DNA of 29,803 nt from an uncultured Deinococcales bacterium. Lineage in GTDB: Bacteria; Deinococcota; Deinococci; Deinococcales; JAAFIG01. The stretch covers positions 9,715-39,517 of the forward strand of contig CAXTKV010000018.1 of NCBI GenBank assembly GCA_964244895.1, given 5' to 3'. Positions 4,526-29,803 of this stretch are shown here, one piece after another (positions within the stretch are counted from its first letter, which is position 1; the number at the start of each line of letters is the position of its first letter). The translations under genes were made by a program, and so were the position numbers. The notes below the pieces were generated by a model. The model saw nothing but the letters and a program-made list of their open reading frames with translations. It was not told where the DNA came from and did not search any database.

Positions 4526-5671
4526 GTGACCGAAGTGGCACAACCCATCATCTACAAGGGTCTCGAGGACGTGCTGTTCACCGAGACCAAACTGACCTTC
4601 ATCGACGGCGACAAAGGCATCCTGAAGCACCTCGGGATTCCGATTCAGGAACTGGCCGAAAAAAGTACCTTCGAGGAAGTCAGCTTCGCGCTTCTCAACG
4701 CCCGACTGCCCAAACGCGATGAACTCGACGCCTTCGACGCCGCCCTGAAAGCCCGCCGCGCCGTGCCAGAGGCGCTCCTGGACGCGATCAAGCGTTATCC
4801 GAAGGGCGCGCACCCGATGCAAATCCTGCGCACCGCCGTCTCAGAGTTGGGACTCCACGACGACCACGGCGAGGACACCAGTGAAGCCCACAAACTCGAG
4901 ATCGCGCACCAGTTGATCGCTCGATTTTCTACCGTGATCGCCGCAATTTACCGCGTCGGGCAGGGCAAAGAACCCGTCGCGCCCCGCGACGACCTGACGC
5001 ACGCCGCGAACTTCTTGTACATGATGCACGGCGAGGAACCCAGCGCCGAACAAGCCCGATTGTTCGACATCGCCCTGATCCTGCACGCCGACCACGGCAT
5101 GAACGCCAGCACCTTCACCGCGATTGCCACCGCCAGCACGCTGTCTGACATGTACAGCGCCATGACCGCCGCCATCGGCGCGCTCAAAGGCCCATTGCAC
5201 GGCGGCGCGAACGAAGCCGTCATGACCATGCTCGACGAGATCGGCACGCCCGACAAAGCTGCGCAATTCATCACCGATAAACTGGATCGCAAGGAAAAAA
5301 TCATGGGCGTCGGCCACCGCGTCTACAAATACTTCGACCCCCGATCCCGCGTGCTGAAAGAATACGCGCATCACGTCGCCGACCTGCACGGCAAATCCCA
5401 CTACTTCCAGATCCTCGAGATTGTGGAAAAAACGGTGATCGACCGGTTGTCCGCCAAGGGCATCTACCCGAACGTGGATTTCTACAGCGGCGTCGTGTAC
5501 AGCGACCTGGGCATTCCCAAATCGTTCTTCACCCCGATTTTTGCTCTGGCCCGCATTTCCGGCTGGATGGCCAGCGTTCTGGAGTACACGCGCAACAACA
5601 GGATTCTGCGCCCCGACGCGTTGTACACGGGTGCGACGGACGCGCATTGGATTCCGGTAGAGGAACGATAA
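4526..5671 (+). CDS. gltA: Citrate synthase (short citrate/2-methylcitrate synthase type, 381 aa)
   Basis: [31 protein letters not shown] and YPNVDFYSG motifs; AAGGAG SD before GTG 4526; a prpC assignment cannot be excluded. Confidence 0.9.
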
Positions 5672-5703
5672 TTTGCGACAGACATTTTTGAAGGAGCTAA
5701 ATT

Positions 5704-6246
5704 ATGACGGTTGTGAACCTTCGATCATTTCTCCAGTCGAATCTTGATGTTTTATTTGTCGGGCTCAACCCACCAGAACAGTCAAACGCTAATGGTCACT
5801 ACTTCTCAGGTAAAGGGTCAAGATTTTTTGACCTTTTGCAAAAAAGCGGACTAATCACAAAAGCAGTATCTAAGGCAAATGCTGATGAGATTGTCTTCGG
5901 TTCAACATCCGTGAATTATAAAAACAAAAGCTTTGGTGTAATTGACCTCGCTGATAATACCGTTCAAACTTATAGTGGGAAGGTAGAGCCAAATAAAAAA
6001 CACGTCGATGCGCTTTTGCAGCAAATACTAGAACTCGAGCCTCGCTTTACTTGCATCATTCACTATAAGGTTCGAAACGCAATAAAGAAGCACGTCCGCC
6101 TTTCGAGTCCTCTCACCTACGGGATTTGCGGAACGGTACTGCCAGACAGCGTATCTTCAGTCGTTATGAATTATTTCCCAAATGGAAACAACATTCCAGA
6201 TGAAACAAAATTACAGATATTCCGAGATCTTCGAAATGCGTTGTAA
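5704..6246 (+). CDS. Uracil-DNA glycosylase superfamily protein (MUG/TDG-like), AT-rich
   Basis: VLFVGLNP...GHYFS....RFFDLL..SGL resembles the MUG GINPG motif region; AAGGAG SD. Confidence 0.7.
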   Translation: MTVVNLRSFLQSNLDVLFVGLNPPEQSNANGHYFSGKGSRFFDLLQKSGLITKAVSKANADEIVFGSTSVNYKNKSFGVIDLADNTVQTYSGKVEPNKKHVDALLQQILELEPRFTCIIHYKVRNAIKKHVRLSSPLTYGICGTVLPDSVSSVVMNYFPNGNNIPDETKLQIFRDLRNAL

Positions 6247-6275
6247 TCCCGAGAGTTAAAGTACGCCATCCCACC

Positions 6276-6653
6276 ATGCCCATCGATCCCGATCTTTATT
6301 CAACACCCGTCGCAGAGCATCAATTTGGTTGCTCGAGATGTGACACATCGGCTGGTGTCATCCAGCTTTTCGGCCCGTAGGATCGCGCAAAGATTGTCCG
6401 CACCAGTTTCATGAGCACCCTCACGACCTGGGTTGATGCGGCAGCATTCGATGATCTTCGCCGCGCCATCGTCGCGGGGGATATCAACGCGATCTATGGG
6501 CACGATCTCGAGTTCGCGTCGTTCTACTGCCCGCAATGCGATGCGTGTTTTTGCGGGTCGCACTGGCGGCACTGGGAAGTTTTCGATGATGGTTTCCACG
6601 ATTGCATTCGCGGCGTCTGCCCGGAGGGTCACGAACGAATGCTCGAGGATTGA
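6276..6653 (+). pseudogene. Cys/His-rich putative Zn-binding protein interrupted by an in-frame TAG at 6378-6380
   Basis: MPIDPDLYSTPVAEHQFGCSRCDTSAGVIQLFGP*DRAKIVRTSF continues in frame into ORF 6411-6653 (CPQC..CFC..H, CPEGH). Confidence 0.55.
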
Positions 6654-16248: not shown

Positions 16249-17619
16249 GTGCAAAACTCGCGCGACTGCCTGGAGACTGTTAATCTCGAAGGGCACAATC
16301 GCGGGAACCTTGACAGTTTTATGGTTGATATTTTTTCTCTTCGGGGGAATCTGTTTTGTGCGGCGCATCCCAGCCGCCTGGAAAACCTCAGGAAAGCGTA
16401 TCTGGCACAGGCGCAACAGCGTTTTTGTCTTTACGCGCTGGCGCTGACGGCCCTGTCCGTCTTTGTCAGCATGGGCTTCCAGACGCAGGCTGCGGCCATG
16501 CTCGGGACAACCGAGATTGCCATCCACAGAAATTGGGCGCTAATCCCCCAGATGGTGTTCGCCGTCTGGGTCGTTCAGAAACTACCCATTCGCAACCTCC
16601 CCAGGTGGCTCGCCATTTCGGGAGCGTTGTTGCTCGTGACCCTCTGGGCGAACCCCGATGGGACGAACACCCAGTCGTTTGTCCTGAGCACGATCGCAGG
16701 TAGCTTTCAGACCAGTCTGAGCTGGAAGCTCTGCGCCCGAACCTTCCCAAATTCCATGCAGGGACAAGGGGCACAAAACCTGTGCTGCCTGTCGGCGACC
16801 GCCATCGCGGGATCACTCGCGCTGAACCTTCACGGCTTCAGTCTGTACGTCGCTGTCAGCGCCATCGGTGTCGTGTTCGCCTGCTGCCTCGTGCAACCGT
16901 TCGAGTGCTTTCTCGAGATCCAGAACCCACAACGACAGGCTTGCCTGAAAAAGTGGGTTTCTTTGAAGAACCTTCTGAGGTTTCAAAAAGAGATGGATTA
17001 CCCCAAGGTTCGCGTCCTCTGGGCATCGGGCATCTCAATGCTTTATCCCGTCTCCATGGCGGTCAAAGGGCAAGCGGATGGGTACACGCTCGAGGTGGCG
17101 CGTCACCTCGGTGACGGCTATGCGAGCATCGAGTCGGGCGCTTCGGTTCTGGCGTGCCTCGCGTTCACCGTGCAACCTGCCACCTATACGGCAATCGCAA
17201 AGCGTGTCGGTGGCGAAGGAAGGCTCATGGCGGGTGCTGGTGTGATTGCCGCATTCACATACATCTTGAGCGGACTGGTGATCGCGAAGGGTTTTGCAGG
17301 TGGTTTGGGATGGGTCGCTCTGGCTTACGCGTTGCGAGCCATTGCGGGTGTGTGCTTCGAGATTTTCGAGCGCGGTTCGGAAGTCTTAAGCGATGAACTC
17401 GCCCACGGACGACGCAACGAGTTCGCGGCAGGAATGCTGGTCATGGTTCTGTACAGACCAGCGCAGTACGTCGCGAGCATCCCGATGTTGCTTCACTTCG
17501 ATCCGAGCGGCTGTTTCGTGGTCAGTGGGTTTTTCCTGCTCATCGCCACGATATTTTTAATCATGAAAGGCGAGCTCATCGGGCGAACCTTTCTCAATTA
17601 TGCCGGACCAAAGTTATAA
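16249..17619 (+). CDS. Multi-pass membrane protein, possibly a highly diverged MFS; start uncertain (alternative ATG at 16321)
   Basis: About 11-12 hydrophobic segments in two blocks split by a hydrophilic loop; atypical codon usage; many Cys. Confidence 0.5.
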   Translation: MQNSRDCLETVNLEGHNRGNLDSFMVDIFSLRGNLFCAAHPSRLENLRKAYLAQAQQRFCLYALALTALSVFVSMGFQTQAAAMLGTTEIAIHRNWALIPQMVFAVWVVQKLPIRNLPRWLAISGALLLVTLWANPDGTNTQSFVLSTIAGSFQTSLSWKLCARTFPNSMQGQGAQNLCCLSATAIAGSLALNLHGFSLYVAVSAIGVVFACCLVQPFECFLEIQNPQRQACLKKWVSLKNLLRFQKEMDYPKVRVLWASGISMLYPVSMAVKGQADGYTLEVARHLGDGYASIESGASVLACLAFTVQPATYTAIAKRVGGEGRLMAGAGVIAAFTYILSGLVIAKGFAGGLGWVALAYALRAIAGVCFEIFERGSEVLSDELAHGRRNEFAAGMLVMVLYRPAQYVASIPMLLHFDPSGCFVVSGFFLLIATIFLIMKGELIGRTFLNYAGPKL

Positions 17620-18182: not shown

Positions 18183-18286
18183 GATCCACCTCCGGCTCGA
18201 GCCTACAGCGCGATCAAGCGCAGGGGTGGATACCTTTGTCACGGTGTCCCTTCGCGCGACCCGCGTTCAGGCGATATCCTGCGCGG

Positions 18287-19285
18287 GTGATTCTGCTCGC
18301 CGACCTGGGTGCGTTGCACGCCAGAAACCCGATGTACAACGCCCAGACCGTCCTGGAAATCATGCGTTTCCTGGGTCGTGAACGCGTCATCCTGACCAAC
18401 TCGAGCGCCCAGGAGTGGTCGGATGGAAGCTGGCGGGATCTCGAGAACCCGCTCTATCACGCCCTTTACGACGACGAGATCGAACTCACACCCGTCGGTG
18501 AAGACTGGGCCTGGGCGCTGGCGGAACGCGATCAGATGCTGGAATTCCTGGGTCAGTACCCGCAGGGCAAGGCCAGAGTGCGCGAACTGGTTCCGCTGGA
18601 AAACGCGCTGCGCGAGGCGCTGTCCCGCCCGATGGACGCGAGCATGGTTCACAGTCCCGAACTGCTGCACACCGTGCGCGCGTACCACGATGCCGCCGCG
18701 CTGTTGCTCGAGGATGGCCCCGGAACAGCGCACCGTAAGCTCCGTCTGGAACGGCTCTCTGAGCGCCTTCAGGCCGCCGTCTGGGACGATGCCGTGGTGA
18801 TATCGCCGCTGGATGACCTGCCCGCGCTGCTGGAGCTTCCCGGCGCCATCCTGCCCGACCTGACGGGCTTCAAACCCGGCGAGGCCTCGCGCTTCCGGGC
18901 GGTCGTGGATCGCGCTTACCGCCTGGAGGAAACCGACGACCTGGACGCGCTGGTGCATCAACTCCTGGAACTGGATGGCCCGCCGGATTCCGCTTTGGGC
19001 CGCATCGCGCTCGAGGCCAGGTTCGCTGCTTCCGGCGTGTACCTGGCCGTGGGCGACCTGGAAAGCGCGCGCGACCTGCTGGAGGCCGTAGCCATGGGGC
19101 AGTTCGACGCGCCCGTCTACCTGCCCGGCTTCGTGCTGGCGCGCCTGGGTCAGGTGCGCGATTTGATGGGTGAACGCGATCGCGCCGTGCGCGCCTACCG
19201 CGCCGCTCTGGGCTTGTCGTGGTTGCCTCAGGAAGCCCGAGCGGTCGCGCAATCCGGTCTCGAGACGCCGTTCGTGATGCTCTGA
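18287..19285 (+). CDS. Hypothetical protein with C-terminal TPR repeats
   Basis: ARLGQVRDLMGERDRAVRAYRAAL is TPR-like; TATCCT 6 nt before GTG 18287. Confidence 0.75.
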   Translation: MILLADLGALHARNPMYNAQTVLEIMRFLGRERVILTNSSAQEWSDGSWRDLENPLYHALYDDEIELTPVGEDWAWALAERDQMLEFLGQYPQGKARVRELVPLENALREALSRPMDASMVHSPELLHTVRAYHDAAALLLEDGPGTAHRKLRLERLSERLQAAVWDDAVVISPLDDLPALLELPGAILPDLTGFKPGEASRFRAVVDRAYRLEETDDLDALVHQLLELDGPPDSALGRIALEARFAASGVYLAVGDLESARDLLEAVAMGQFDAPVYLPGFVLARLGQVRDLMGERDRAVRAYRAALGLSWLPQEARAVAQSGLETPFVML

Positions 19286-22507: not shown

Positions 22508-23074
22508 ATGAAACGTTTTCTTCCCATCGCCGCGTTATTCATCATCGCTGGCGCGCTGACATTTTCCAGCGCGCAAACCAGCGCCTTCAGCCTGAAATCC
22601 GCCGATATCGCACCCGGAGCCACGCTCAAGCTCGAGCAGGTTTTTAACAGCTTCGGTTGCACGGGCGGCAACGTTTCCCCCGCGCTCGAGTGGACGGGCG
22701 CACCCGCAGGCACGAAGAGCTTCGCGGTGATCCTGCACGACCCGGACGCGCCCACGGGCGTCGGCGGCTTCACGCACTGGATCGTGTACAACATTCCCGC
22801 GACCGCGACCGGCTTGCCCAAGGGCGCTGGAGCGGCGGACGGCAAGCTGCTGCCCGCCGGTGCGGTTCAGGCCACGACATCCTTCGGCGCGTCCGGTTAC
22901 GGCGGCCCGTGCCCGCCCGCCGGGGACAAGCCCCACCAGTACGTCTTCACGGTCTACGCGCTGGGTGTAGACAAGCTTCAACTGGACGCCAACGCGACCC
23001 AGGCGTTCGTTGGGTTCAACATCAACGGCAACGCGTTGGGCAAGGCCACGTTCACCGGTTTCTACGGTCGCTAA
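22508..23074 (+). CDS. YbhB/YbcL family (PEBP-like) secreted protein
   Basis: GCTGGNVSP.L.W, DPDAP, HW, YGGPCPP.GD.PH.Y.FTVYAL motifs; AGGAGGT SD; signal peptide. Confidence 0.92.
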   Translation: MKRFLPIAALFIIAGALTFSSAQTSAFSLKSADIAPGATLKLEQVFNSFGCTGGNVSPALEWTGAPAGTKSFAVILHDPDAPTGVGGFTHWIVYNIPATATGLPKGAGAADGKLLPAGAVQATTSFGASGYGGPCPPAGDKPHQYVFTVYALGVDKLQLDANATQAFVGFNINGNALGKATFTGFYGR

Positions 23075-23090
23075 ACTCGAGTAGGGTTCA

Positions 23091-23138
23091 GAACACCGTC
23101 CAGCGCGCATATTTGAAAACCCGTGCTGGACGGTGTGC
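23091..23138. repeat. REP-like element copy
   Basis: GAACACCGTCCAGCGCG...CGTGCTGGACGGTGT. Confidence 0.8.
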
Positions 23139-23291
23139 TCGTTTCGTTCGCTCGAGAGCGCGGTGCCCAATTTTTCGTACAGCTCGAGTGCGTCCGAAAT
23201 ATCCGTGACCCCGGTGCCGCTCGGGATGCGTCCAGCCCAGAGGAATGCTCGAGAAAAGCAGCTCGATTCTCGAGTATCCGCATATCCGAGC

Positions 23292-23335
23292 ACACCGTCC
23301 CAGACGCATTCCTCAATTCGCGTGCCAGACGGTGC
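23292..23335. repeat. REP-like element copy (degenerate)
   Basis: ACACCGTCCCAGACGC...GCGTGCCAGACGGTGC. Confidence 0.65.
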
Positions 23336-23573
23336 TCTTACTCGAGCCTCAGCGAACCCTGCACCTCGATGCGGCAGGTCTGCGGGTGGAAAATCTCAGG
23401 GTTCGACCATAGAAAGCCTGTACGCGCCGTCGCGCACCAGCTTGCCCACGTCTCGCGCCCAGGTCGCGGGGTCGCATGGCGTAAAGCAACCGCGCCTAAG
23501 AATCAAAGCAGGTAAACTCAGAACCATCGATGAATTCATCACCTCGTTCGAAAGCCTTCGCGTTCGTATTTGA

Positions 23574-26573
23574 ATGGTGGTCATGAAGCTCAGACGCGCC
23601 CGCTCGAGATCGACGGATTTTGCGGCAACCAGCGTTCCCAGGTTGTTGCGCTACCATCTCGAGCGTCCCCACCTGATCAACCGCATGGCCCTCAGCGAAG
23701 CGAGATTGGTCGCGTTGATCGCCCCGTCGGGCTACGGTAAAACCGCGCTGCTGGCAGAATTCGCTCGAGCCACCTTTCGTCGGGTGCTGTGGTTCAAGCT
23801 CGTACCGGAGCTGCGCGACCCCACGCGTTTGAGTCAGGCGGTACGATCGGAACTCGAGCATTTCGATTTGGGTTTTTCCTTTCCAGAACTTCAAGGATCA
23901 ACCGACCAGCCCGTCGCCGCGACCGATCTGGCCCGGCAACTTGACCAGGCCGAGGAAAACCTGAACTTCGTGTTCGACGGTCTTGATGACCTCGATTCGG
24001 CGGCTGTGGATTGGCTTCAAACCTTCGCCCTGGCGCTGGCGGAAGGCCATCGCGCGTTCGTGGCGGGTTACCAGGCCAACGGTTTGGCTCTGCCCCGGCT
24101 CAGCAGCGATGGACTCGCCGAGGTCATGGGGGCGAACGACCTGGCCTTTGCACCCGGTGAGATCGACGAGTACATGAAACAACGTGGACTCGAAGCCACG
24201 GATGCACAACAGGCGCTTGAAGGCTGGCCCGTCGCGGTCTCGCTGGCCGCTGCGACCACCGAATTCGAGCCGGGCGAACTGGTTTTTGAGGGACTCGGAC
24301 GCTTACCGCAAGCCGTTCGCTCGAGCCTTGCGGAGGCAACGGTACTCGAGATTTGGAACGAAGACACCGTGCGTCAATCCGGCGCGATCTTGCCATCCGG
24401 GTGGTTGCGCGAAGTCAAACGGGCTGGATTGCCAATAAGCCCGATTGGGCAAAGTGCGTTCAAACCGCATCGTTTGCTGCTGGAAACGCTCGAACTGGAA
24501 TTGCATTCGAACCCAGCGCGTTACGCTGAAATGCATACGGTCGCAGCCCGCCAAGCTGAAAAAGCGGGCGATGCAATCCAGGCATTGCAGCATTTTCAGA
24601 AAGCCGGTCTCGAGGAATCAGCTTTTCGGTTGCTCGAAACGACGGTGCATCAACTTGAGCTTCGTGGCGAATACAGAATGATCAGAAAAACCCTCGAATT
24701 GTTCGCCATAAAATCGCTATCTCCAGATTTGCGGGCCATGTTTGCGCGCGTACTGATCGAAACTGGAGATTCCGCTCGCGGCGAAGTGTTGTTGCTCGAA
24801 CTGCAAGCTCGGGGCGAGGCCAAAATGCAGGTTTTAAGTGGTCGAACCGAACTCGCGCTCTACCGACAGCGGCACGAGGAAGCGATGCGGCTCTCCGACG
24901 AGGGTATTGACTCTGCGCCGGACGAGGTTTGGCGGGTCAGGTTCAAGCGTTTTCAAGTGCGTTCACTGATTGAAAATGGTCAGGCGGATCAGGCTTTAAG
25001 CAGTGCGCTCGAATTGATTGCATGGGCTGAACGCGAAAACCGCCCCTACGATTTAAGTGGTGTTTTGATCAACGCCCAAGTCGCACTGATGCTCCTTGGA
25101 CGATTACAAGAAAGTGAACGGATGGCTTTTCGGGTGCTGCGTTTATCCGAAGCGATTGAAAAGTTCACCCTAACCGCGATGATATTGAACAACCTGGCGG
25201 ATCTTTACCGTCGTCAGGATCGTATGGTTGAAGCGGTCGACATGATTGATCGCGCCATTGTTTTGGCTGAAACCAAACAGATCCCGGCGCTCCCGTTTTT
25301 GCACGATACCCGTGCCGAACTGAGCTTTAAGCAATCGCGTTTCGAGGACGCCTTGGAGGATTTCCAGACGGCCTTACGCCACTGCGGTGGAAGATCCTTC
25401 GACGCACTGGCGCACAGCATCCGACTGCGATGCGCCGATGCCGCACGTCGCGTTGGGCGCACGGATTTGGTCAAGCATTCGCTGGCCCGCGTCCGGGAGG
25501 ATGCACCCGAACCGGGCTCGAGGTTGTACGGCATGTTTCAGTTTCAAGAAGGTCTGGGTGCCTTCGTCAGCGGTGATCTCGGAAGCGCCCGTCAGCATTT
25601 GGAACGGGTGCTGCCACCGGGTGCTGATGCCGAAGATCATCAGCGAGCGCTGGCATTCCTGGCCGAAATCGCACGCCTCAAGGGTTGTCTCAAACCATCC
25701 CAGATCGAAGCGTTGTTGCGCTCGCTCGAGTTGTACGGCAACGACAGCCTCTTGCGACTCGACGCCACCTACCTGGGTGGCTTGTACGCCGAGTGCGTGC
25801 GGCGGGGCTGGTGGCCGGAACGGTTTTCTCCGCACGCTGGTGAACTCCAAATCGCGACCAGCAGCGCCGAAGCTGGTCTCGAGCTTCGCTTGCAAAGTCT
25901 CGGAGCAGTTCAGGCCGTTATCAACGGCTCGAGCGCCCACATTCCGCTGGCCAAAGCCGCCGAATTGCTGGTCTTTCTGGCGCTTCACGGGCCTTGCACC
26001 CGCGACAGACTGATGGATGCGCTCTGGGATGGCTCCAACGAACAGCGCCACCTCGAGTACTTCAAGATTGCGGTGCGCCGCTTGCGGGCATCGTTCAGCG
26101 AGCACCCGAACCTGGATTTCAACCCGTTGGTGTTTGAGAAGGGTCTGTACAGCATCAACGAACGCTTCCGTGTGATCTTGGATGTCACCGCCATCGGCCA
26201 AGCGTTGATTGATGGTGACGAAGCCACGCTCGAGAGCGCCATTCTCGCGTGGAAAGGCGATTTTCTGCCTGGCGCTGAAACCGAATGGGTCTCAAATGCT
26301 CGCTTGCTTTTCCAAGATGAAGCGCTCGAGGCTGCGCTCGGCCTCGCCAAACGCCTGATCACCAACGAACCCCGTCGAGCACTGGAGTTGCACCGTGCCG
26401 CCGTGCGAATCAACGCCCTTCACGAGGGCGCACACGTGGCCTTGATTCAAGCGCTTCGCACCCTCGGGGATGGTACGGGCGCTCAGATCGCGTACCGCGC
26501 GTACACCCGAATGCTCGAGGTTGAGTTCTCTCAGAAACCGGATGCGGCCTTGCGGCATTCTTTCGGAGAATAA
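23574..26573 (+). CDS. Large transcriptional regulator: MalT-like P-loop, TPR array, C-terminal winged helix and BTAD (SARP-like)
   Basis: RPHL, APSGYGKT (Walker A), FVFDGLD, EGWPVA; TPR-like LNNLADLY and LHDTRAEL; ELLVFLALHGP.TRD.L.DALW; WKGDFLPG...EW; HEGAH..LI..L..LGD...A...Y. Start may be 23574 or 23583. Confidence 0.85.
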   Translation: MVVMKLRRARSRSTDFAATSVPRLLRYHLERPHLINRMALSEARLVALIAPSGYGKTALLAEFARATFRRVLWFKLVPELRDPTRLSQAVRSELEHFDLGFSFPELQGSTDQPVAATDLARQLDQAEENLNFVFDGLDDLDSAAVDWLQTFALALAEGHRAFVAGYQANGLALPRLSSDGLAEVMGANDLAFAPGEIDEYMKQRGLEATDAQQALEGWPVAVSLAAATTEFEPGELVFEGLGRLPQAVRSSLAEATVLEIWNEDTVRQSGAILPSGWLREVKRAGLPISPIGQSAFKPHRLLLETLELELHSNPARYAEMHTVAARQAEKAGDAIQALQHFQKAGLEESAFRLLETTVHQLELRGEYRMIRKTLELFAIKSLSPDLRAMFARVLIETGDSARGEVLLLELQARGEAKMQVLSGRTELALYRQRHEEAMRLSDEGIDSAPDEVWRVRFKRFQVRSLIENGQADQALSSALELIAWAERENRPYDLSGVLINAQVALMLLGRLQESERMAFRVLRLSEAIEKFTLTAMILNNLADLYRRQDRMVEAVDMIDRAIVLAETKQIPALPFLHDTRAELSFKQSRFEDALEDFQTALRHCGGRSFDALAHSIRLRCADAARRVGRTDLVKHSLARVREDAPEPGSRLYGMFQFQEGLGAFVSGDLGSARQHLERVLPPGADAEDHQRALAFLAEIARLKGCLKPSQIEALLRSLELYGNDSLLRLDATYLGGLYAECVRRGWWPERFSPHAGELQIATSSAEAGLELRLQSLGAVQAVINGSSAHIPLAKAAELLVFLALHGPCTRDRLMDALWDGSNEQRHLEYFKIAVRRLRASFSEHPNLDFNPLVFEKGLYSINERFRVILDVTAIGQALIDGDEATLESAILAWKGDFLPGAETEWVSNARLLFQDEALEAALGLAKRLITNEPRRALELHRAAVRINALHEGAHVALIQALRTLGDGTGAQIAYRAYTRMLEVEFSQKPDAALRHSFGE

Positions 26574-26624
26574 AGCGGTTTTAGTCGTCCTGAACGCTCT
26601 TTTTAACTTGGGCGCACATTAACT

Positions 26625-26708
26625 TACCCCGTTCTGGTTCCCTGATGGCTTGATCCCCAGGGAACCAGAACGGGGTATTCCCCGGTTGTTCCCCAGCCGG
26701 GGAATACC
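26625..26708 (+). promoter_or_regulatory. Two overlapping inverted repeats in the leader of the peptide array
   Basis: Perfect 20-bp stem 26625-26644/26658-26677 and 12-bp stem 26674-26685/26697-26708. Confidence 0.6.
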
Positions 26709-26787
26709 TTGTGTTTCAGAACCAGTACCGAACGGACACGCCGCAGAACCTCGAGCACCTTCGAGGCACGACATGAAGGAGGTGATC

Positions 26788-26829
26788 ATGAAGAAGATTC
26801 GTAAAGGTCGGAGTGCTTGGGCGGGCTAA
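26788..26829 (+). CDS. 13-aa peptide 1: MKKIRKGRSAWAG
   Basis: AAGGAGGTGA SD, ATG...TAA; one of 7 paralogues. Confidence 0.85.
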   Translation: MKKIRKGRSAWAG

Positions 26830-26861
26830 ACTCCTCTAAACAGCATAGAGAAGAGGGAATC

Positions 26862-26903
26862 ATGAAGAAAATCCGCAAAGGCCGGAGTGTTTGGTTAGGG
26901 TAA
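26862..26903 (+). CDS. 13-aa peptide 2: MKKIRKGRSVWLG
   Basis: AAGAGGG SD-like site, ATG...TAA; paralogue. Confidence 0.82.
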   Translation: MKKIRKGRSVWLG

Positions 26904-26916
26904 ATGAATTTTCGCG

Positions 26917-26962
26917 TAGTTTATCTCAACTGGTTTATTTATGAATCAGTTGAGATAAACTA
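26917..26962 (+). promoter_or_regulatory. 16-bp perfect inverted repeat inside the peptide array
   Basis: TAGTTTATCTCAACTG...CAGTTGAGATAAACTA, extendable inward with G-U pairs. Confidence 0.6.
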
Positions 26963-26985
26963 ACAGATTCTAAAAAGGAGCAATC

Positions 26986-27132
26986 GTGGTAAAAATCCTG
27001 AAAGTCATCGTTGTTCTCGGGTTCGCATTTTCCGCATCAAACTTTGTATCTGCGAGTCCTGCTGGTAATCCTAAGGCCGCTGTTGTTTCAAGCAATCCTA
27101 TCTATCAAGGTGCAGGTTCAGCCCGAAGGTAG
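26986..27132 (+). CDS. 48-aa secreted propeptide MVKILKVIVVLGFAFSASNFVSA|SPAGNPKAAVVSSNPIYQGAGSARR
   Basis: AAAGGAG SD 5 nt before the GTG; basic N-region, hydrophobic core and V-S-A signal peptidase I-like site. Confidence 0.7.
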   Translation: MVKILKVIVVLGFAFSASNFVSASPAGNPKAAVVSSNPIYQGAGSARR

Positions 27133-27223
27133 AAAATCAATCTCTATGCTCGAGAAAGTTTAAAAACTGCTGCACAGGTGGATTTTTGAATTCAACCTCG
27201 TTCAAAGATGAAAGGAGGAAACG

Positions 27224-27265
27224 ATGAAGAAGGTTCGAAAAGGCCGAGCTGTTTGGGCAGGTTAA
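27224..27265 (+). CDS. 13-aa peptide 3: MKKVRKGRAVWAG
   Basis: AAAGGAGG SD, ATG...TAA; paralogue. Confidence 0.85.
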   Translation: MKKVRKGRAVWAG

Positions 27266-27297
27266 AAGACATTATTTGATGTAGAAAGAAGGTGATT

Positions 27298-27339
27298 ATG
27301 AAGAAAATCCGTAAAGGTCAAAGGGCTTGGACTTCCTAA
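27298..27339 (+). CDS. 13-aa peptide 4: MKKIRKGQRAWTS
   Basis: AGAAGGTGA SD, ATG...TAA; paralogue. Confidence 0.83.
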   Translation: MKKIRKGQRAWTS

Positions 27340-27374
27340 ACAAATCTCGAGCAACTAGAGAGAGAAGGTGAAAC

Positions 27375-27416
27375 ATGAAGAAAATCCGTAAGGGACGCTC
27401 TGCTTGGGCAACGTAA
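27375..27416 (+). CDS. 13-aa peptide 5: MKKIRKGRSAWAT
   Basis: AGAAGGTGA SD, ATG...TAA; paralogue. Confidence 0.83.
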   Translation: MKKIRKGRSAWAT

Positions 27417-27450
27417 TCCAACCCTGATGTGAAATCGAGACAAGGACATT

Positions 27451-27492
27451 TTGAAGAAGATTCAGCGCGGAAAAGCTGCTTGGTCGGGCTAA
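27451..27492 (+). CDS. 13-aa peptide 6: MKKIQRGKAAWSG (TTG start)
   Basis: AAGGA SD, TTG...TAA; the most divergent paralogue. Confidence 0.72.
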   Translation: MKKIQRGKAAWSG

Positions 27493-27525
27493 ATATATTT
27501 CAGATGTAGCAAAAAGGAGGTGATC

Positions 27526-27567
27526 ATGAAGAAAATCCGTAAAGGACGCAGAGCCTGGTCAACGTAA
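27526..27567 (+). CDS. 13-aa peptide 7: MKKIRKGRRAWST
   Basis: AAGGAGGTGA SD, ATG...TAA; paralogue. Confidence 0.85.
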   Translation: MKKIRKGRRAWST

Positions 27568-27623
27568 GTTTTCAGTCGCTTCAATCCTGAACTTCATTTC
27601 GCACCACAAATCAGATCTACATC

Positions 27624-27658
27624 CTCCTGAGGCTGGGCGCAAACGCACACCTCAGGAG
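27624..27658 (+). promoter_or_regulatory. Hairpin between the peptide array and the MFS gene
   Basis: CTCCTGAGG...CCTCAGGAG outer stem with an inner GCG-CAAA-CGC; only a weak U-tract. Confidence 0.5.
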
Positions 27659-27678
27659 CGGTTTCACAGGGGATCACC

Positions 27679-28968
27679 ATGTCTGACACCACAACACCCG
27701 AAGCGGCCCTCAGTTCCCGCCAAGTTTTTGCCATGCGTGACTTCCGCTCGTTGTGGTTCGCGTACCTGATCTCCGAATTTGGTAACAGTCTGACCACGTT
27801 CGCGCTGGTCATTTTGGTGAACAACCTGACGGGATCGACGGCGTCGGTAGCAACTATGGCGCTCGCGGTGGTTCTCCCGCAAGTGGTTTTTGGACTGATC
27901 GCTGGCGTGTTCGTGGATCGTTGGAACACCAGACGGGTCATGATCGTCTCGGATCTTGTTCGGGGAATCCTGGTGCTCGGTTTTATTCCCGCGGTGCTCA
28001 GCCATCAACTCTGGATCATTTACGCGCTGGGTTTCGTGCAAGCCACCGTCGGTACGTTCTTTTCTCCGGCCAGATTGTCGTTCATGCCTTCGGTGGTTCC
28101 AGAAAACGGTTTGATGGCCGCCAACGCCATGACGGGCACGGCTCGAGTCGCCGCGACCCTGCTCGGTGGGGCTCTCGTGGGTGCCATGCTGGGTGTGGTC
28201 AACGCGTCATGGCCCATTTTTTTGATAGATGCCATCACGTTTTTGGCTTCGGCGTTGTTGGTCAACAGCATTCGTTCAAAAGTCAATTTGCCAGAAGAGA
28301 CGGAATCCGAAAGCATCTCCGGGTTCTTTCAAGAATTCAAAGCAGGCATGACCTATATCGCTCAATCGGCGAGCTTGACTGGACTCATCATTGCTGTTGG
28401 TGTTTCAGAAATTGGATTGGGGGCTACGCAAGTCCTGTACGCTCCTTTTTTCACCAAAGAACTGCATGTGCCCGCCGCTTGGCTTGGCCCAGAAGAAGCT
28501 GTGAGTGCTGTCGCCATGGCGTTTGGTGGCGTTTTGGTCGCTGTTCTAGCGGCCAAGTTCAAACCCCAGGTGCTGGCTCCGCTCGGCCTGCTGATTCTTG
28601 GTTTGGGGCTCGGCGCTGTTGCCGCAGTCACGAACCTGTGGTTGCTGATGGCCACGGCGCTCCTGACTGGAATTTTTATCAGCCCCATGCAATCGTCTTT
28701 CTCCACGATCTTTCAGCGTTCTTGCGCCCCGCAGTTGCGCGGTCGGGTCGGTTCAGCCATCACGACCGTCTTTAACACGGCCAGCCTGTTCTCGATTGTC
28801 GGGGCTGGCGTACTGGGTGATCTGCTCGGTTTGCGAACACTCTTTTTGGCCGTTGGAAGCATCACGGTGCTGGCGGGACTGATCGCTTGGGTGCTGTTCC
28901 GCCCGAGCAGCCTCGAGTTGGCGACCCAATCCAATTCTGCTGCCACGACGACACCAGCTTCAGCCTGA
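27679..28968 (+). CDS. MFS transporter (DHA3/MFS_3 exporter-like)
   Basis: RDFRSLW..YLIS.FG, motif A GVFVDRWNTRRVMIVSDLVRG, FFSPA, LRGRV; about 12 TM segments. Confidence 0.9.
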   Translation: MSDTTTPEAALSSRQVFAMRDFRSLWFAYLISEFGNSLTTFALVILVNNLTGSTASVATMALAVVLPQVVFGLIAGVFVDRWNTRRVMIVSDLVRGILVLGFIPAVLSHQLWIIYALGFVQATVGTFFSPARLSFMPSVVPENGLMAANAMTGTARVAATLLGGALVGAMLGVVNASWPIFLIDAITFLASALLVNSIRSKVNLPEETESESISGFFQEFKAGMTYIAQSASLTGLIIAVGVSEIGLGATQVLYAPFFTKELHVPAAWLGPEEAVSAVAMAFGGVLVAVLAAKFKPQVLAPLGLLILGLGLGAVAAVTNLWLLMATALLTGIFISPMQSSFSTIFQRSCAPQLRGRVGSAITTVFNTASLFSIVGAGVLGDLLGLRTLFLAVGSITVLAGLIAWVLFRPSSLELATQSNSAATTTPASA

Positions 28969-29077
28969 CGGAGATCGAGGTTGTACGAATATCGGGGGTT
29001 TCTCCGACGGTCTTCACGCCTATCGTTTCGGCATCGCATCACGTACCTTAACTCGTCGCCGCAAACTCGCTTCGATA

Positions 29078-29102
29078 AAAACACCGTCCAGTACGGTGTT
29101 TT
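29078..29102. repeat. Compact hairpin form of the REP-like element
   Basis: AAAACACCGT-CCAGT-ACGGTGTTTT. Confidence 0.7.
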
Positions 29103-29198
29103 CTTTAATCTTTCAATATCTGGTGCGGAGCGCGAGTCCTTCGCGCTCGAGCAAGGTTTATTGGTGCTCGGGTCTGGTGTGATGGGGGGGCTCGAGAG

Positions 29199-29232
29199 AA
29201 CGCGCGGTGAGGGTCGACGCTCACCGCGCGTT
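29199..29232. terminator. 13-bp inverted repeat between the convergent MFS and peptidase genes
   Basis: AACGCGCGGTGAG-8 nt-CTCACCGCGCGTT. Confidence 0.45.
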
Positions 29233-29324
29233 ACGGAGGGGTGAGCCAGCGAATGCTCGAGTGACTCGCCGTATTCGTTTTGCGCCCCGAACTTTCGATG
29301 GAACACTCAGGCGATGTCTTCATG

Positions 29325-29803
29325 TTAGATCATCAGTTCTCGTTTCAACCACCCAACCAAATCGCGTACGCCTTCACGGTCAAAACGCAACGGTGTTCCG
29401 GCGGCGGCGTACAGTTCGGGCAGACTGCGCGTGTACCCCAGCCCGAGCGCGGTTCGGTACGCTTCGAGCGTTTGGGTGGGTCGCTCGAGCGCGTTTTTCC
29501 AGAGTTGGACCGCGCCCAGTCCGGCCAGAATGTACTCGAACATGTAAAACGGGGCTTCAAAATGGTGCCCGATGGTCAACCAGCCTCCGGCCCTGATCGG
29601 CTCGAGGTCCGTCCAGTCCAGGCCAGGCGCGAAACGGTCTGAAAGTTCAAGCCATTTCTGGTGCAGTGCGTCGGTGGTGGGCGGAATCGTCTGGGTGTAC
29701 ACCCAGTGCTGGAAGGCATCGCTGGGCGCCAGTCTGGGCAGGTCCACCCCCAGTTGCTCGAGGGCGTCTTGGCGGGCGCGTCTGGCATCGATGCTCGAGT
29801 AAA
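29325..29803 (-). CDS. M3 family oligoendopeptidase (PepF/M3B-like), C-terminal part; gene begins beyond the window
   Basis: Frame open to the window edge; DAFQHWVY, W...HHFEAPFY.FEY.LA.LGA.QLW, Y..AL.LG.TRSLPELY.AAG; the HExxH motif would lie outside the window. Confidence 0.8.
   Translation of the reverse strand, partial: YSSIDARRARQDALEQLGVDLPRLAPSDAFQHWVYTQTIPPTTDALHQKWLELSDRFAPGLDWTDLEPIRAGGWLTIGHHFEAPFYMFEYILAGLGAVQLWKNALERPTQTLEAYRTALGLGYTRSLPELYAAAGTPLRFDREGVRDLVGWLKRELMI

Follow-up and report, generated by a model that had tools for sequence, protein, structure and literature searches.

An array of leaderless 13-residue peptide genes between a NOD-TPR-SARP regulator and a major facilitator transporter in Deinococcales: a candidate pheromone cassette

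What is the function of seven open reading frames (ORFs) of only 13 codons that lie between a large regulator gene and a transporter gene? The question is raised by a stretch of 29,803 nt from an uncultured Deinococcales bacterium (contig CAXTKV010000018.1 of assembly GCA_964244895.1, positions 9,715 to 39,517), here called the window, in which the regulator, the small ORFs, a gene of the major facilitator superfamily (MFS) and a convergent gene for an M3 peptidase stand together. In the source genome (G000; 5.1 Mb, 91% complete), the window makes up the right-hand end of contig C18. A preliminary description of the window had proposed a module that senses, produces, processes and exports peptides. 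Our analysis supports the idea that the four parts belong together, and we tentatively read them as a pheromone circuit.

The regulator, the small ORFs, the MFS gene and the 3' part of the M3 gene all lie where the preliminary description had placed them. It had counted eight small ORFs; all are present, but only seven have 13 codons, and the eighth is a 48-codon accessory ORF outside the 13-mer set. The main parts of the locus are as follows.

23574..26573, plus strand: 999-residue regulator, NOD-TPR-SARP (winged helix-turn-helix, wHTH, plus BTAD)
26678..26693, plus strand: predicted operator from a motif scan, two TTCCC direct repeats with an 11-bp period (TTCCC-N6-TTCCC)
26705..26710, plus strand: predicted –10 hexamer TACCTT, 11 nt past the second TTCCC repeat
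26788..26829, plus strand: 13-mer 1, MKKIRKGRSAWAG, with a strong Shine-Dalgarno-like sequence upstream
26862..26903, plus strand: 13-mer 2, MKKIRKGRSVWLG
27224..27265, plus strand: 13-mer 3, MKKVRKGRAVWAG
27298..27339, plus strand: 13-mer 4, MKKIRKGQRAWTS
27375..27416, plus strand: 13-mer 5, MKKIRKGRSAWAT
27451..27492, plus strand: 13-mer 6, (M)KKIQRGKAAWSG, with a TTG start and a weak ribosome site, the most diverged copy
27526..27567, plus strand: 13-mer 7, MKKIRKGRRAWST
27679..28968, plus strand: 429-residue MFS transporter, DHA3/H+-antiporter-like (MFS_1, 107.5 bits)
29325..29803, minus strand: M3B oligoendopeptidase, 3' end (last 158 codons), TIGR02289-like, with a HECGH zinc motif
G000:C252:4998-6167: 5' part of the M3 gene, found by the M3 model at the end of contig C252

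The end of the window coincides with the end of contig C18, and the M3 gene continues on contig C252. Database protein P0009 spans both pieces (93% over residues 1-391 and 92% over residues 408-565, the window part). In sequencing run X2, one 16,623-bp contig extends over the array region and, at adjoining coordinates, over almost the whole of C252; the array and C252 pieces were taken as one record from their equal size and depth.

The 13-codon ORFs read MKK[IV][RQ][KR]G[RQK]x[AV]Wxx with a period of about 75 nt. This motif occurs seven times in the 5.1-Mb genome, every time in the array, and the reversed control pattern gave no match. A second genome (G001) has three such ORFs (MKKILKGKSAWSG once and MKKIRKGASAWAG twice), and all ten ORFs share the same length and the residues K2, K3, G7 and W11. 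Identity among the ten was 76, 77 and 54% at codon positions 1, 2 and 3, the ratio of nonsynonymous to synonymous differences (pN/pS) was 0.38 (uncorrected proportions among related copies) and the spacers between the ORFs (–30 to –15) were 28% identical. The codon-position pattern, the pN/pS value and the divergent spacers indicate that the 13-mers are peptide genes under selection rather than a DNA repeat. Their net charge is +4 to +6, their C-terminal residue is Gly, Ser or Thr, and no export or secretion signal sequence was found in them. A strong ribosome-site-like sequence precedes every copy except copy 6, which may be decaying.

To what extent does the array keep the same company elsewhere? 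The material directly inspected for the cassette was two genomes (G000 and G001) and run X2. The co-occurrence of the four parts, which the preliminary description had proposed to test, was borne out in G001, a second genus, which carries the same set between different flanking genes: a regulator with 55% identity, the three 13-mers, an MFS protein with 63% identity and a convergent M3 with 55–61% identity, on contigs C663, C591 and C612, the MFS end adjoining the M3 gene on the next contig. The left neighbours of the set are a membrane-protein gene and a gene that by eye is mfd-like, and an M19 dipeptidase gene lies on its right. The X2 contig contains the regulator end, a shortened array, the MFS start and C252, and skips 623 nt that include the 48-residue ORF, which is also missing from G001; the lengths at the joint suggest about five 13-mer copies. 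Comparison of G000, G001 and X2 thus indicates that the four parts stay constant while copy number and accessory ORFs vary. In addition, two or three of the parts appear to have database homologues on one and the same contig in eight cases, judged from equal sizes only (262657, 116150, 93542, 15178, 5584, 4215, 24520 and 9147). As the preliminary description had noted, the block is lower in GC (55.8%, and 45.7% in the array) than the left flank and the genome (62.7%). The GC content at third codon positions is 0.64–0.73 in the regulator, MFS and M3 genes compared with 0.77–0.82 in five housekeeping genes.

Across 364 genomes of the phylum, regulator homologues at E ≤ 1e-80 were found in 39, and only that of G001 exceeded 38% identity (two candidates scored per genome). 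The strict 13-mer pattern found only G000 in the same 364 genomes and missed the G001 variants. A second pattern, applied to the GTDB collection, returned three stretches, namely the G001 array and two isolated matches that have none of the module genes in their surroundings. With a relaxed pattern there were 44 metagenome and 2 viral matches, which we took as chance because all were single and no homologue of the regulator, MFS or M3 gene was close to any of them. A scan of the metagenome collection by MFS alignment gave 86 candidates and no confirmed case, and sequencing run X1 gave short unrelated pieces only. We consider it highly probable that the regulator, array, MFS and M3 genes function as a single cassette.

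To gain a better understanding of how the array might be controlled, we consider the DNA ahead of it. Of 37 regulator homologues, 14 are followed within 300 nt by a perfect TTCCC-N6-TTCCC, compared with a mean of 0.01 in shuffled sequences and none on the reverse strand. The motif was derived from the 14 loci themselves, six of which are near-orthologues of one genus, so that only about seven independent lineages stand behind it. Two observations are less exposed to this circularity. The sequence TAnnnT follows the second repeat at exactly 11 nt in 12 of the 14 loci and at eight neighbouring offsets in none. When the matrix was trained without the array loci, the window site still ranked first in the 5.1-Mb genome (25.9 versus 20.3 bits). 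At the array promoter no consensus sigma-70 –35 box and no sigma-70 promoter were found, and no operator site precedes the regulator gene itself. The binding sites of SARPs are 11-bp direct repeats placed shortly upstream of the –10 box (PMC10936776; papers are cited here by PubMed Central number, each for the part of its text that was available). In the rule of that paper the –10 box lies 8 bp from the repeat; here, measured from the 5-nt core, the distance is 11 nt. From the fit of operator and –10 geometry to the SARP rule, we strongly infer that the SARP domain of the regulator activates the promoter of the array and the MFS gene; control of the array by the regulator, as first suggested, is very likely given a SARP-type operator ahead of it. 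The operator and –10 box of G000 also overlap a 12-bp inverted repeat (26678-26713), a feature not conserved in G001.

The first gene after the operator in the 14 loci is a signal-peptide ORF of 44–95 residues in ten (by eye), a leaderless array in two and a 126-residue ORF in one; in the last it is cut off. The two loci with a leaderless array are the two operator loci that also carry the MFS gene. Small signal-peptide ORFs after paralogous regulators were seen at loci L003-L006, L009, L013, L070, L073, L078, L079 and L129. They carry poly-Pro, Cys pairs or WPPHWPW repeats, and all of these loci except L070 have a perfect operator.

The regulator has a MalT-like NOD/P-loop region (residues ~16-398), a tetratricopeptide repeat (TPR) region (~400-750) and a C-terminal SARP unit of wHTH and BTAD (~773-997). 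Its Pfam matches were TPR, AAA, BTAD (32.2 bits, over the cut-off) and, weakly, Trans_reg_C. A profile of 16 family sequences matched the structures of MalT (8bob, E 7e-32) in its N-terminal NOD and of AfsR (8jke, E 6e-15) in its C-terminal SARP part, and its middle region matched the TPR proteins NprR (4gpk, E 3e-8), RapJ and kinesin light chain (E 2e-11). The regulators of the window and of G001 fall in one clade with database proteins P0014-P0016. Paralogues are 15–31% identical to the window regulator in the middle TPR segment and 29–59% in the wHTH. This segment is the fastest-diverging part of the regulator among paralogues, yet it is conserved within the array clade, where pairs share 55–78% of it, compared with a mean of 32% for other pairs at 55–65% SARP identity (4 array-clade and 16 other pairs, which are not independent).

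The MFS protein has acidic residues in its predicted membrane helices (E33, E237 and E272/E273, placed by alignment). It scored 199.7 bits on TIGR00900 (cut-off 319.6) and 48–71 bits on the Mef(A/B/C/En2) models (cut-offs 675–870), which leaves it outside Mef. Matches to it were found in 16 of the 364 genomes, and close relatives without an array include those of G009 (56%), G073 (52%) and G124 (51%). Of 15 loci with MFS homologues, 12 could be seen in full, and in these no array lay upstream. In G009, on contig C5, a signal-peptide ORF (L048:9416-9664) that carries the repeat GRSGMWAD twice and has a basic C-terminus is divergent from the 56% MFS homologue and faintly resembles the 13-mer tail. 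More distant homologues (36–44%; L051-L054 and L058-L061) follow an HTH-like gene of 207–216 residues rather than an array, and at several of these loci a 350-residue gene comes after the MFS homologue (labels for these loci by eye).

The M3 enzyme has the features of M3B (PF01432 at 134 bits and HExxH in the form HECGH), its nearest structures are 2h1j, 3ahm and 3sks, and by eye it has no signal peptide. The best model for the two full-length cluster M3s was TIGR02289, at 350 and 327 bits and so below the cut-off of 442. The PepF type named in the preliminary description was not upheld: the same two proteins scored 67.5 and 57.1 bits on TIGR00181, for which the cut-off is 490.55. In 19 genomes of the family the N-terminal part of M3 was matched in 17 and the C-terminal part in 18, with two matches in G000 and G001 only. 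The housekeeping copy of G000 is on contig C44 and, as in several relatives, has a small lipoprotein-like gene upstream (names by eye). The array-side M3s form a separate clade of 14 rows on a long branch (SH-aLRT 100; quick tree of 31 rows), and identity to them is at most 43% in all other genomes of the 364-genome set (three candidates scored per genome). The distinct clade, the extra copy confined to G000 and G001 and the low PepF score indicate that this M3 is not the housekeeping pepF, the case that the preliminary description had itself raised as a challenge. Nor was a modifying enzyme, suggested there to the right of position 29803, found in the next 6.2 kb of G000, which encode a U5-methyltransferase (rRNA/tRNA-type), an APC permease and a beta-helix protein. 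The absence of a modifying enzyme beyond M3 makes a peptide made on ribosomes and modified after translation (RiPP) unlikely. Two neighbours were rejected as module parts: the U5-methyltransferase, since G001 has another gene at that place, and the M19 dipeptidase beside M3 in G001, since its G000 orthologue (66%) is on contig C208.

The reading that we favour, with a probability of roughly 45%, is that the 13-mers are leaderless pheromones exported by the MFS protein, sensed by the TPR region of the regulator and quenched by M3. The regulator would switch on the array and the pump from the direct-repeat operator, and the cationic peptides would leave the cell through the MFS protein and be sensed again by the TPR region, giving positive feedback. 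M3 would destroy 13-mers in the cytoplasm and thereby set a threshold, acting as a quencher rather than a maturase. The four conserved parts agree with the module first proposed, but a processing role for M3 is no better supported than a destroying one. The regulator family as a whole would pair each regulator with a peptide gene, and in the array clade leaderless 13-mers would have replaced a Sec-exported propeptide. We propose that, with this replacement, the peptides would need an exporter of their own and, being made mature in the cytoplasm, a dedicated enzyme to clear them. More tentative still is the idea that the cassette is a self-contained pheromone circuit of new design in Deinococcota that arose by this replacement. 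There are precedents for the separate steps. Leaderless pheromones of 8–10 residues act with TPR receptors (PMC10518010), PepF shuts off signalling by XIP and PepF homologues accept peptides of 7–17 residues (PMC9173638), and repeated pheromones occur within RRNPPA propeptides (PMC11343458).

Several points weigh against the pheromone reading. The likeness of the TPR region to NprR and RapJ seems generic because kinesin light chain matches it better. The array-clade TPR regions are not more acidic than those of paralogues (net –3 to –9 versus –6 to –12), nor is there a consistent shift towards acidity in the cluster M3s. No second high-scoring operator was found anywhere in G000 and none upstream of M3, where co-regulation is thus unsupported; the cassette has no output gene beyond the peptides and the pump. 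The existence of relatives at 51–56% without an array suggests that the MFS family is not peptide-specific. Three to seven copies with strong ribosome-binding sites suggest an effector needed at high dose rather than a signal, and the operator-driven gene in the paralogue loci could be an output instead of a ligand. The route of a 1.5-kDa cation across the outer membrane, which we presume the envelope to have, is unexplained. Lastly, the known leaderless communication peptides (LCPs) are described as hydrophobic and not polycationic (PMC10518010).

High dose would be natural if the 13-mers were an unmodified antimicrobial or surface-active cocktail, exported by the MFS protein, with M3 for self-protection and a regulator that answers some other cue. 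The net charge of +4 to +6, the invariant Trp and the multiple copies with variable tails and strong ribosome sites would suit this, and tandem leaderless effector arrays are familiar from aureocin A70 and the phenol-soluble modulins. The layout also recalls microcin C with its MFS exporter MccC and protective peptidase MccF (PMC4010828). We nevertheless regard a cocktail, the main rival of the pheromone reading, as unlikely: the 13-mers are short with a small hydrophobic surface, no membrane immunity gene is in the cassette, the array takes the slot of single small secreted peptides in ten paralogue loci, and TPR conservation follows peptide conservation. An effector that stays inside the cell, with pump and peptidase merely clearing it, is suggested by AfsR, which activates afsS (a 63-residue protein) from a box of this kind (PMC10936776, PMC6988585). 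The 13-mers have no export signals and would be basic enough to bind nucleic acid. However, it would be odd to co-transcribe an exporter with such peptides, the paralogue peptides have signal sequences and the domain order is unlike that of AfsR, all of which make an internal effector improbable.

The bipartite design of the peptides, with invariant K2, K3, G7 and W11, is what might be expected of RiPP precursors that are modified by an enzyme encoded elsewhere and trimmed by M3 in their basic N-terminal part, and G000 holds four P450 and four ThiF-domain matches on other contigs. This is a poor prospect given that no modifying gene is on either flank in G000 or G001, that G000 has no second strong operator and that the peptides have no terminal Asn or Cys. 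We give least credence to the possibility that the ORFs encode leader peptides which stall ribosomes at an arrest motif, Lys/Arg-X-Lys/Arg (+X+), and so induce a macrolide-type pump. All ten peptides contain +X+, a motif sensitive to macrolides, and attenuation controls mef operons (PMC12583479, PMC4335068); moreover, some close MFS homologues carry the JGI label 'DHA3, macrolide efflux'. By contrast, W11 and the fixed length are conserved past the motif, where stalling has no need of them. In a simple folding model with a ribosome masking the last 13-mer ORF, accessibility of the MFS start changed only slightly, falling from 0.56 to 0.47 in G000 and rising from 0.49 to 0.58 in G001. In addition, a 60-residue ORF separates the array from the MFS gene in G001, the Mef scores are far under their cut-offs, and the dedicated M3 and activator would be left without explanation.

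Other features in and near the cassette are listed here.

26626..26676, plus strand: 19-bp hairpin between the regulator stop and the operator, from a fold of 26574-26720 (z –6.75)
26917..26962, plus strand: 21-bp hairpin before the 48-residue ORF (z –5.92), within the 623 nt skipped by the X2 contig
26986..27132, plus strand: accessory 48-residue ORF with a signal-peptide-like N-terminus (by eye), a type found after paralogous regulators
27624..27658, plus strand: hairpin between array and MFS gene (z –1.58)
29078..29102, no strand assigned: short REP-like hairpin, 24-nt form with A/T flanks, which scores as terminator-like

The 19-bp hairpin is possibly the 3' end of the regulator mRNA; the fold that contains it also includes a second inverted repeat across the operator. 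The hairpin ahead of the MFS gene has a counterpart at the same place in G001 with an unlike sequence (z –5.49) and may set a high ratio of peptide to pump. The 48-residue ORF had no Pfam, NCBIfam or usable Atlas match. The 60-residue ORF of G001 (L030:2756-2938) has a Trp-containing tail; it had no Pfam or usable Atlas match, no clear match in G000 and no alignment to the 48-residue ORF. Of the REP-like copies that the preliminary description had put just outside the block, the one at 23292 is outside, but we count that at 29078-29102 as inside the four-part block since it sits between the MFS and M3 stop codons, where it is likely to be the terminator between these convergent genes. Rfam gave no match over 23000-29803. 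Elsewhere, REP-like palindromes of 47–68 nt occupy many intergenic spaces of window positions 773-23338, and four REP core motifs gave 2454 matches genome-wide, several per element. The left part of the window also has a 23-nt tandem repeat of about four copies (1-92), a stretch of only 45–50% GC (5501-6500) that encloses a 180-residue ORF (5704-6246), presumably similar to a uracil-DNA glycosylase-fold protein, a hydrophobic 456-residue ORF of reduced GC with no Pfam match at E 0.1 (16249-17619, plus strand) and a 349-residue ORF without a Pfam match (18236-19285, minus strand).

Why would such a cassette matter? Peptide signalling through cytoplasmic TPR receptors has been described for Bacillota (PMC10075063), and this locus, which packs an operator, 13-mers and a candidate receptor, exporter and quencher into about 7.5 kb, offers a test case in Deinococcota. 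If the 13-mers act on the regulator, a STAND-SARP protein of MalT/AfsR-like type would have a named ligand, unmodified ribosomal peptides would be shown to leave through an MFS pump, and the same reading would gain support for many Deinococcota paralogues with secreted peptides. If the peptides are antimicrobial instead, the cassette would resemble a leaderless bacteriocin system in minimal form, with immunity conferred by a peptidase. No fitting published description was found in the literature searched, which excluded most subscription papers and supplements.

As a comparison, the regulator shares an N-terminal NOD, a helical sensor and a C-terminal DNA-binding domain with MalT, a STAND activator, but ends in wHTH-BTAD where MalT ends in LuxR, and its score on the MalT model was 54.6 bits, where the cut-off is 537. 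RRNPP(A) regulators are compact HTH-TPR or TPR-only proteins without NOD or BTAD. The cassette has the TPR region and adjacent peptide gene typical of RRNPP(A) and LCP systems and lacks their compact architecture (NOD-TPR-wHTH-BTAD, 999 residues). A TPR regulator beside its peptide gene or genes is shared with NprR-NprX, Rap-Phr and ComR-ComS (PMC10075063, PMC11343458). By contrast, RRNPP propeptides have signal sequences and carry repeats inside one propeptide, whereas the 13-mers are leaderless and separate ORFs. The LCPs and the SpeB-inducing peptide (SIP) with RopB-clan receptors likewise have an ultra-small ORF, no export signal and an adjoining cytoplasmic TPR activator (PMC10518010). 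In the available text of that paper, LCPs are mostly of 8–10 residues, highly hydrophobic, from Bacillota and tied to an RRNPP receptor, unlike the three to seven polycationic 13-mers here with a NOD-TPR-SARP candidate receptor and linked MFS and M3 genes. An M3B enzyme able to quench a signal is a theme shared with the shut-off of XIP by PepF (PMC9173638), although that PepF is unlinked and essential, whereas the M3 of the cassette is an additional, linked copy that falls outside the PepF model. With AfsR-AfsS of Streptomyces coelicolor the cassette has in common the NOD, TPR and SARP domains, 11-bp repeats near the –10 box and a small target gene (PMC10936776, PMC6988585). The AfsR order is SARP-NOD-TPR with an N-terminal SARP, whereas the cassette regulator has NOD-TPR-SARP, the MalT order, and AfsS is a single 63-residue intracellular protein without an accompanying pump or peptidase. 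Microcin C (mccABCDE-mccF) also joins a short leaderless peptide to an MFS exporter and a separately transcribed peptidase (PMC4010828), but the cassette has no MccB adenylyltransferase (no ThiF match on C18 or C252) and no terminal Asn, and its peptidase is M3 and not S66. Judged from sequence, then, the cassette is outside RRNPP/LCP by architecture and charge, outside the AfsR type by domain order, and outside PepF, microcin C and Mef. Its mode of action may nevertheless resemble that of an LCP circuit with a PepF-style shut-off.

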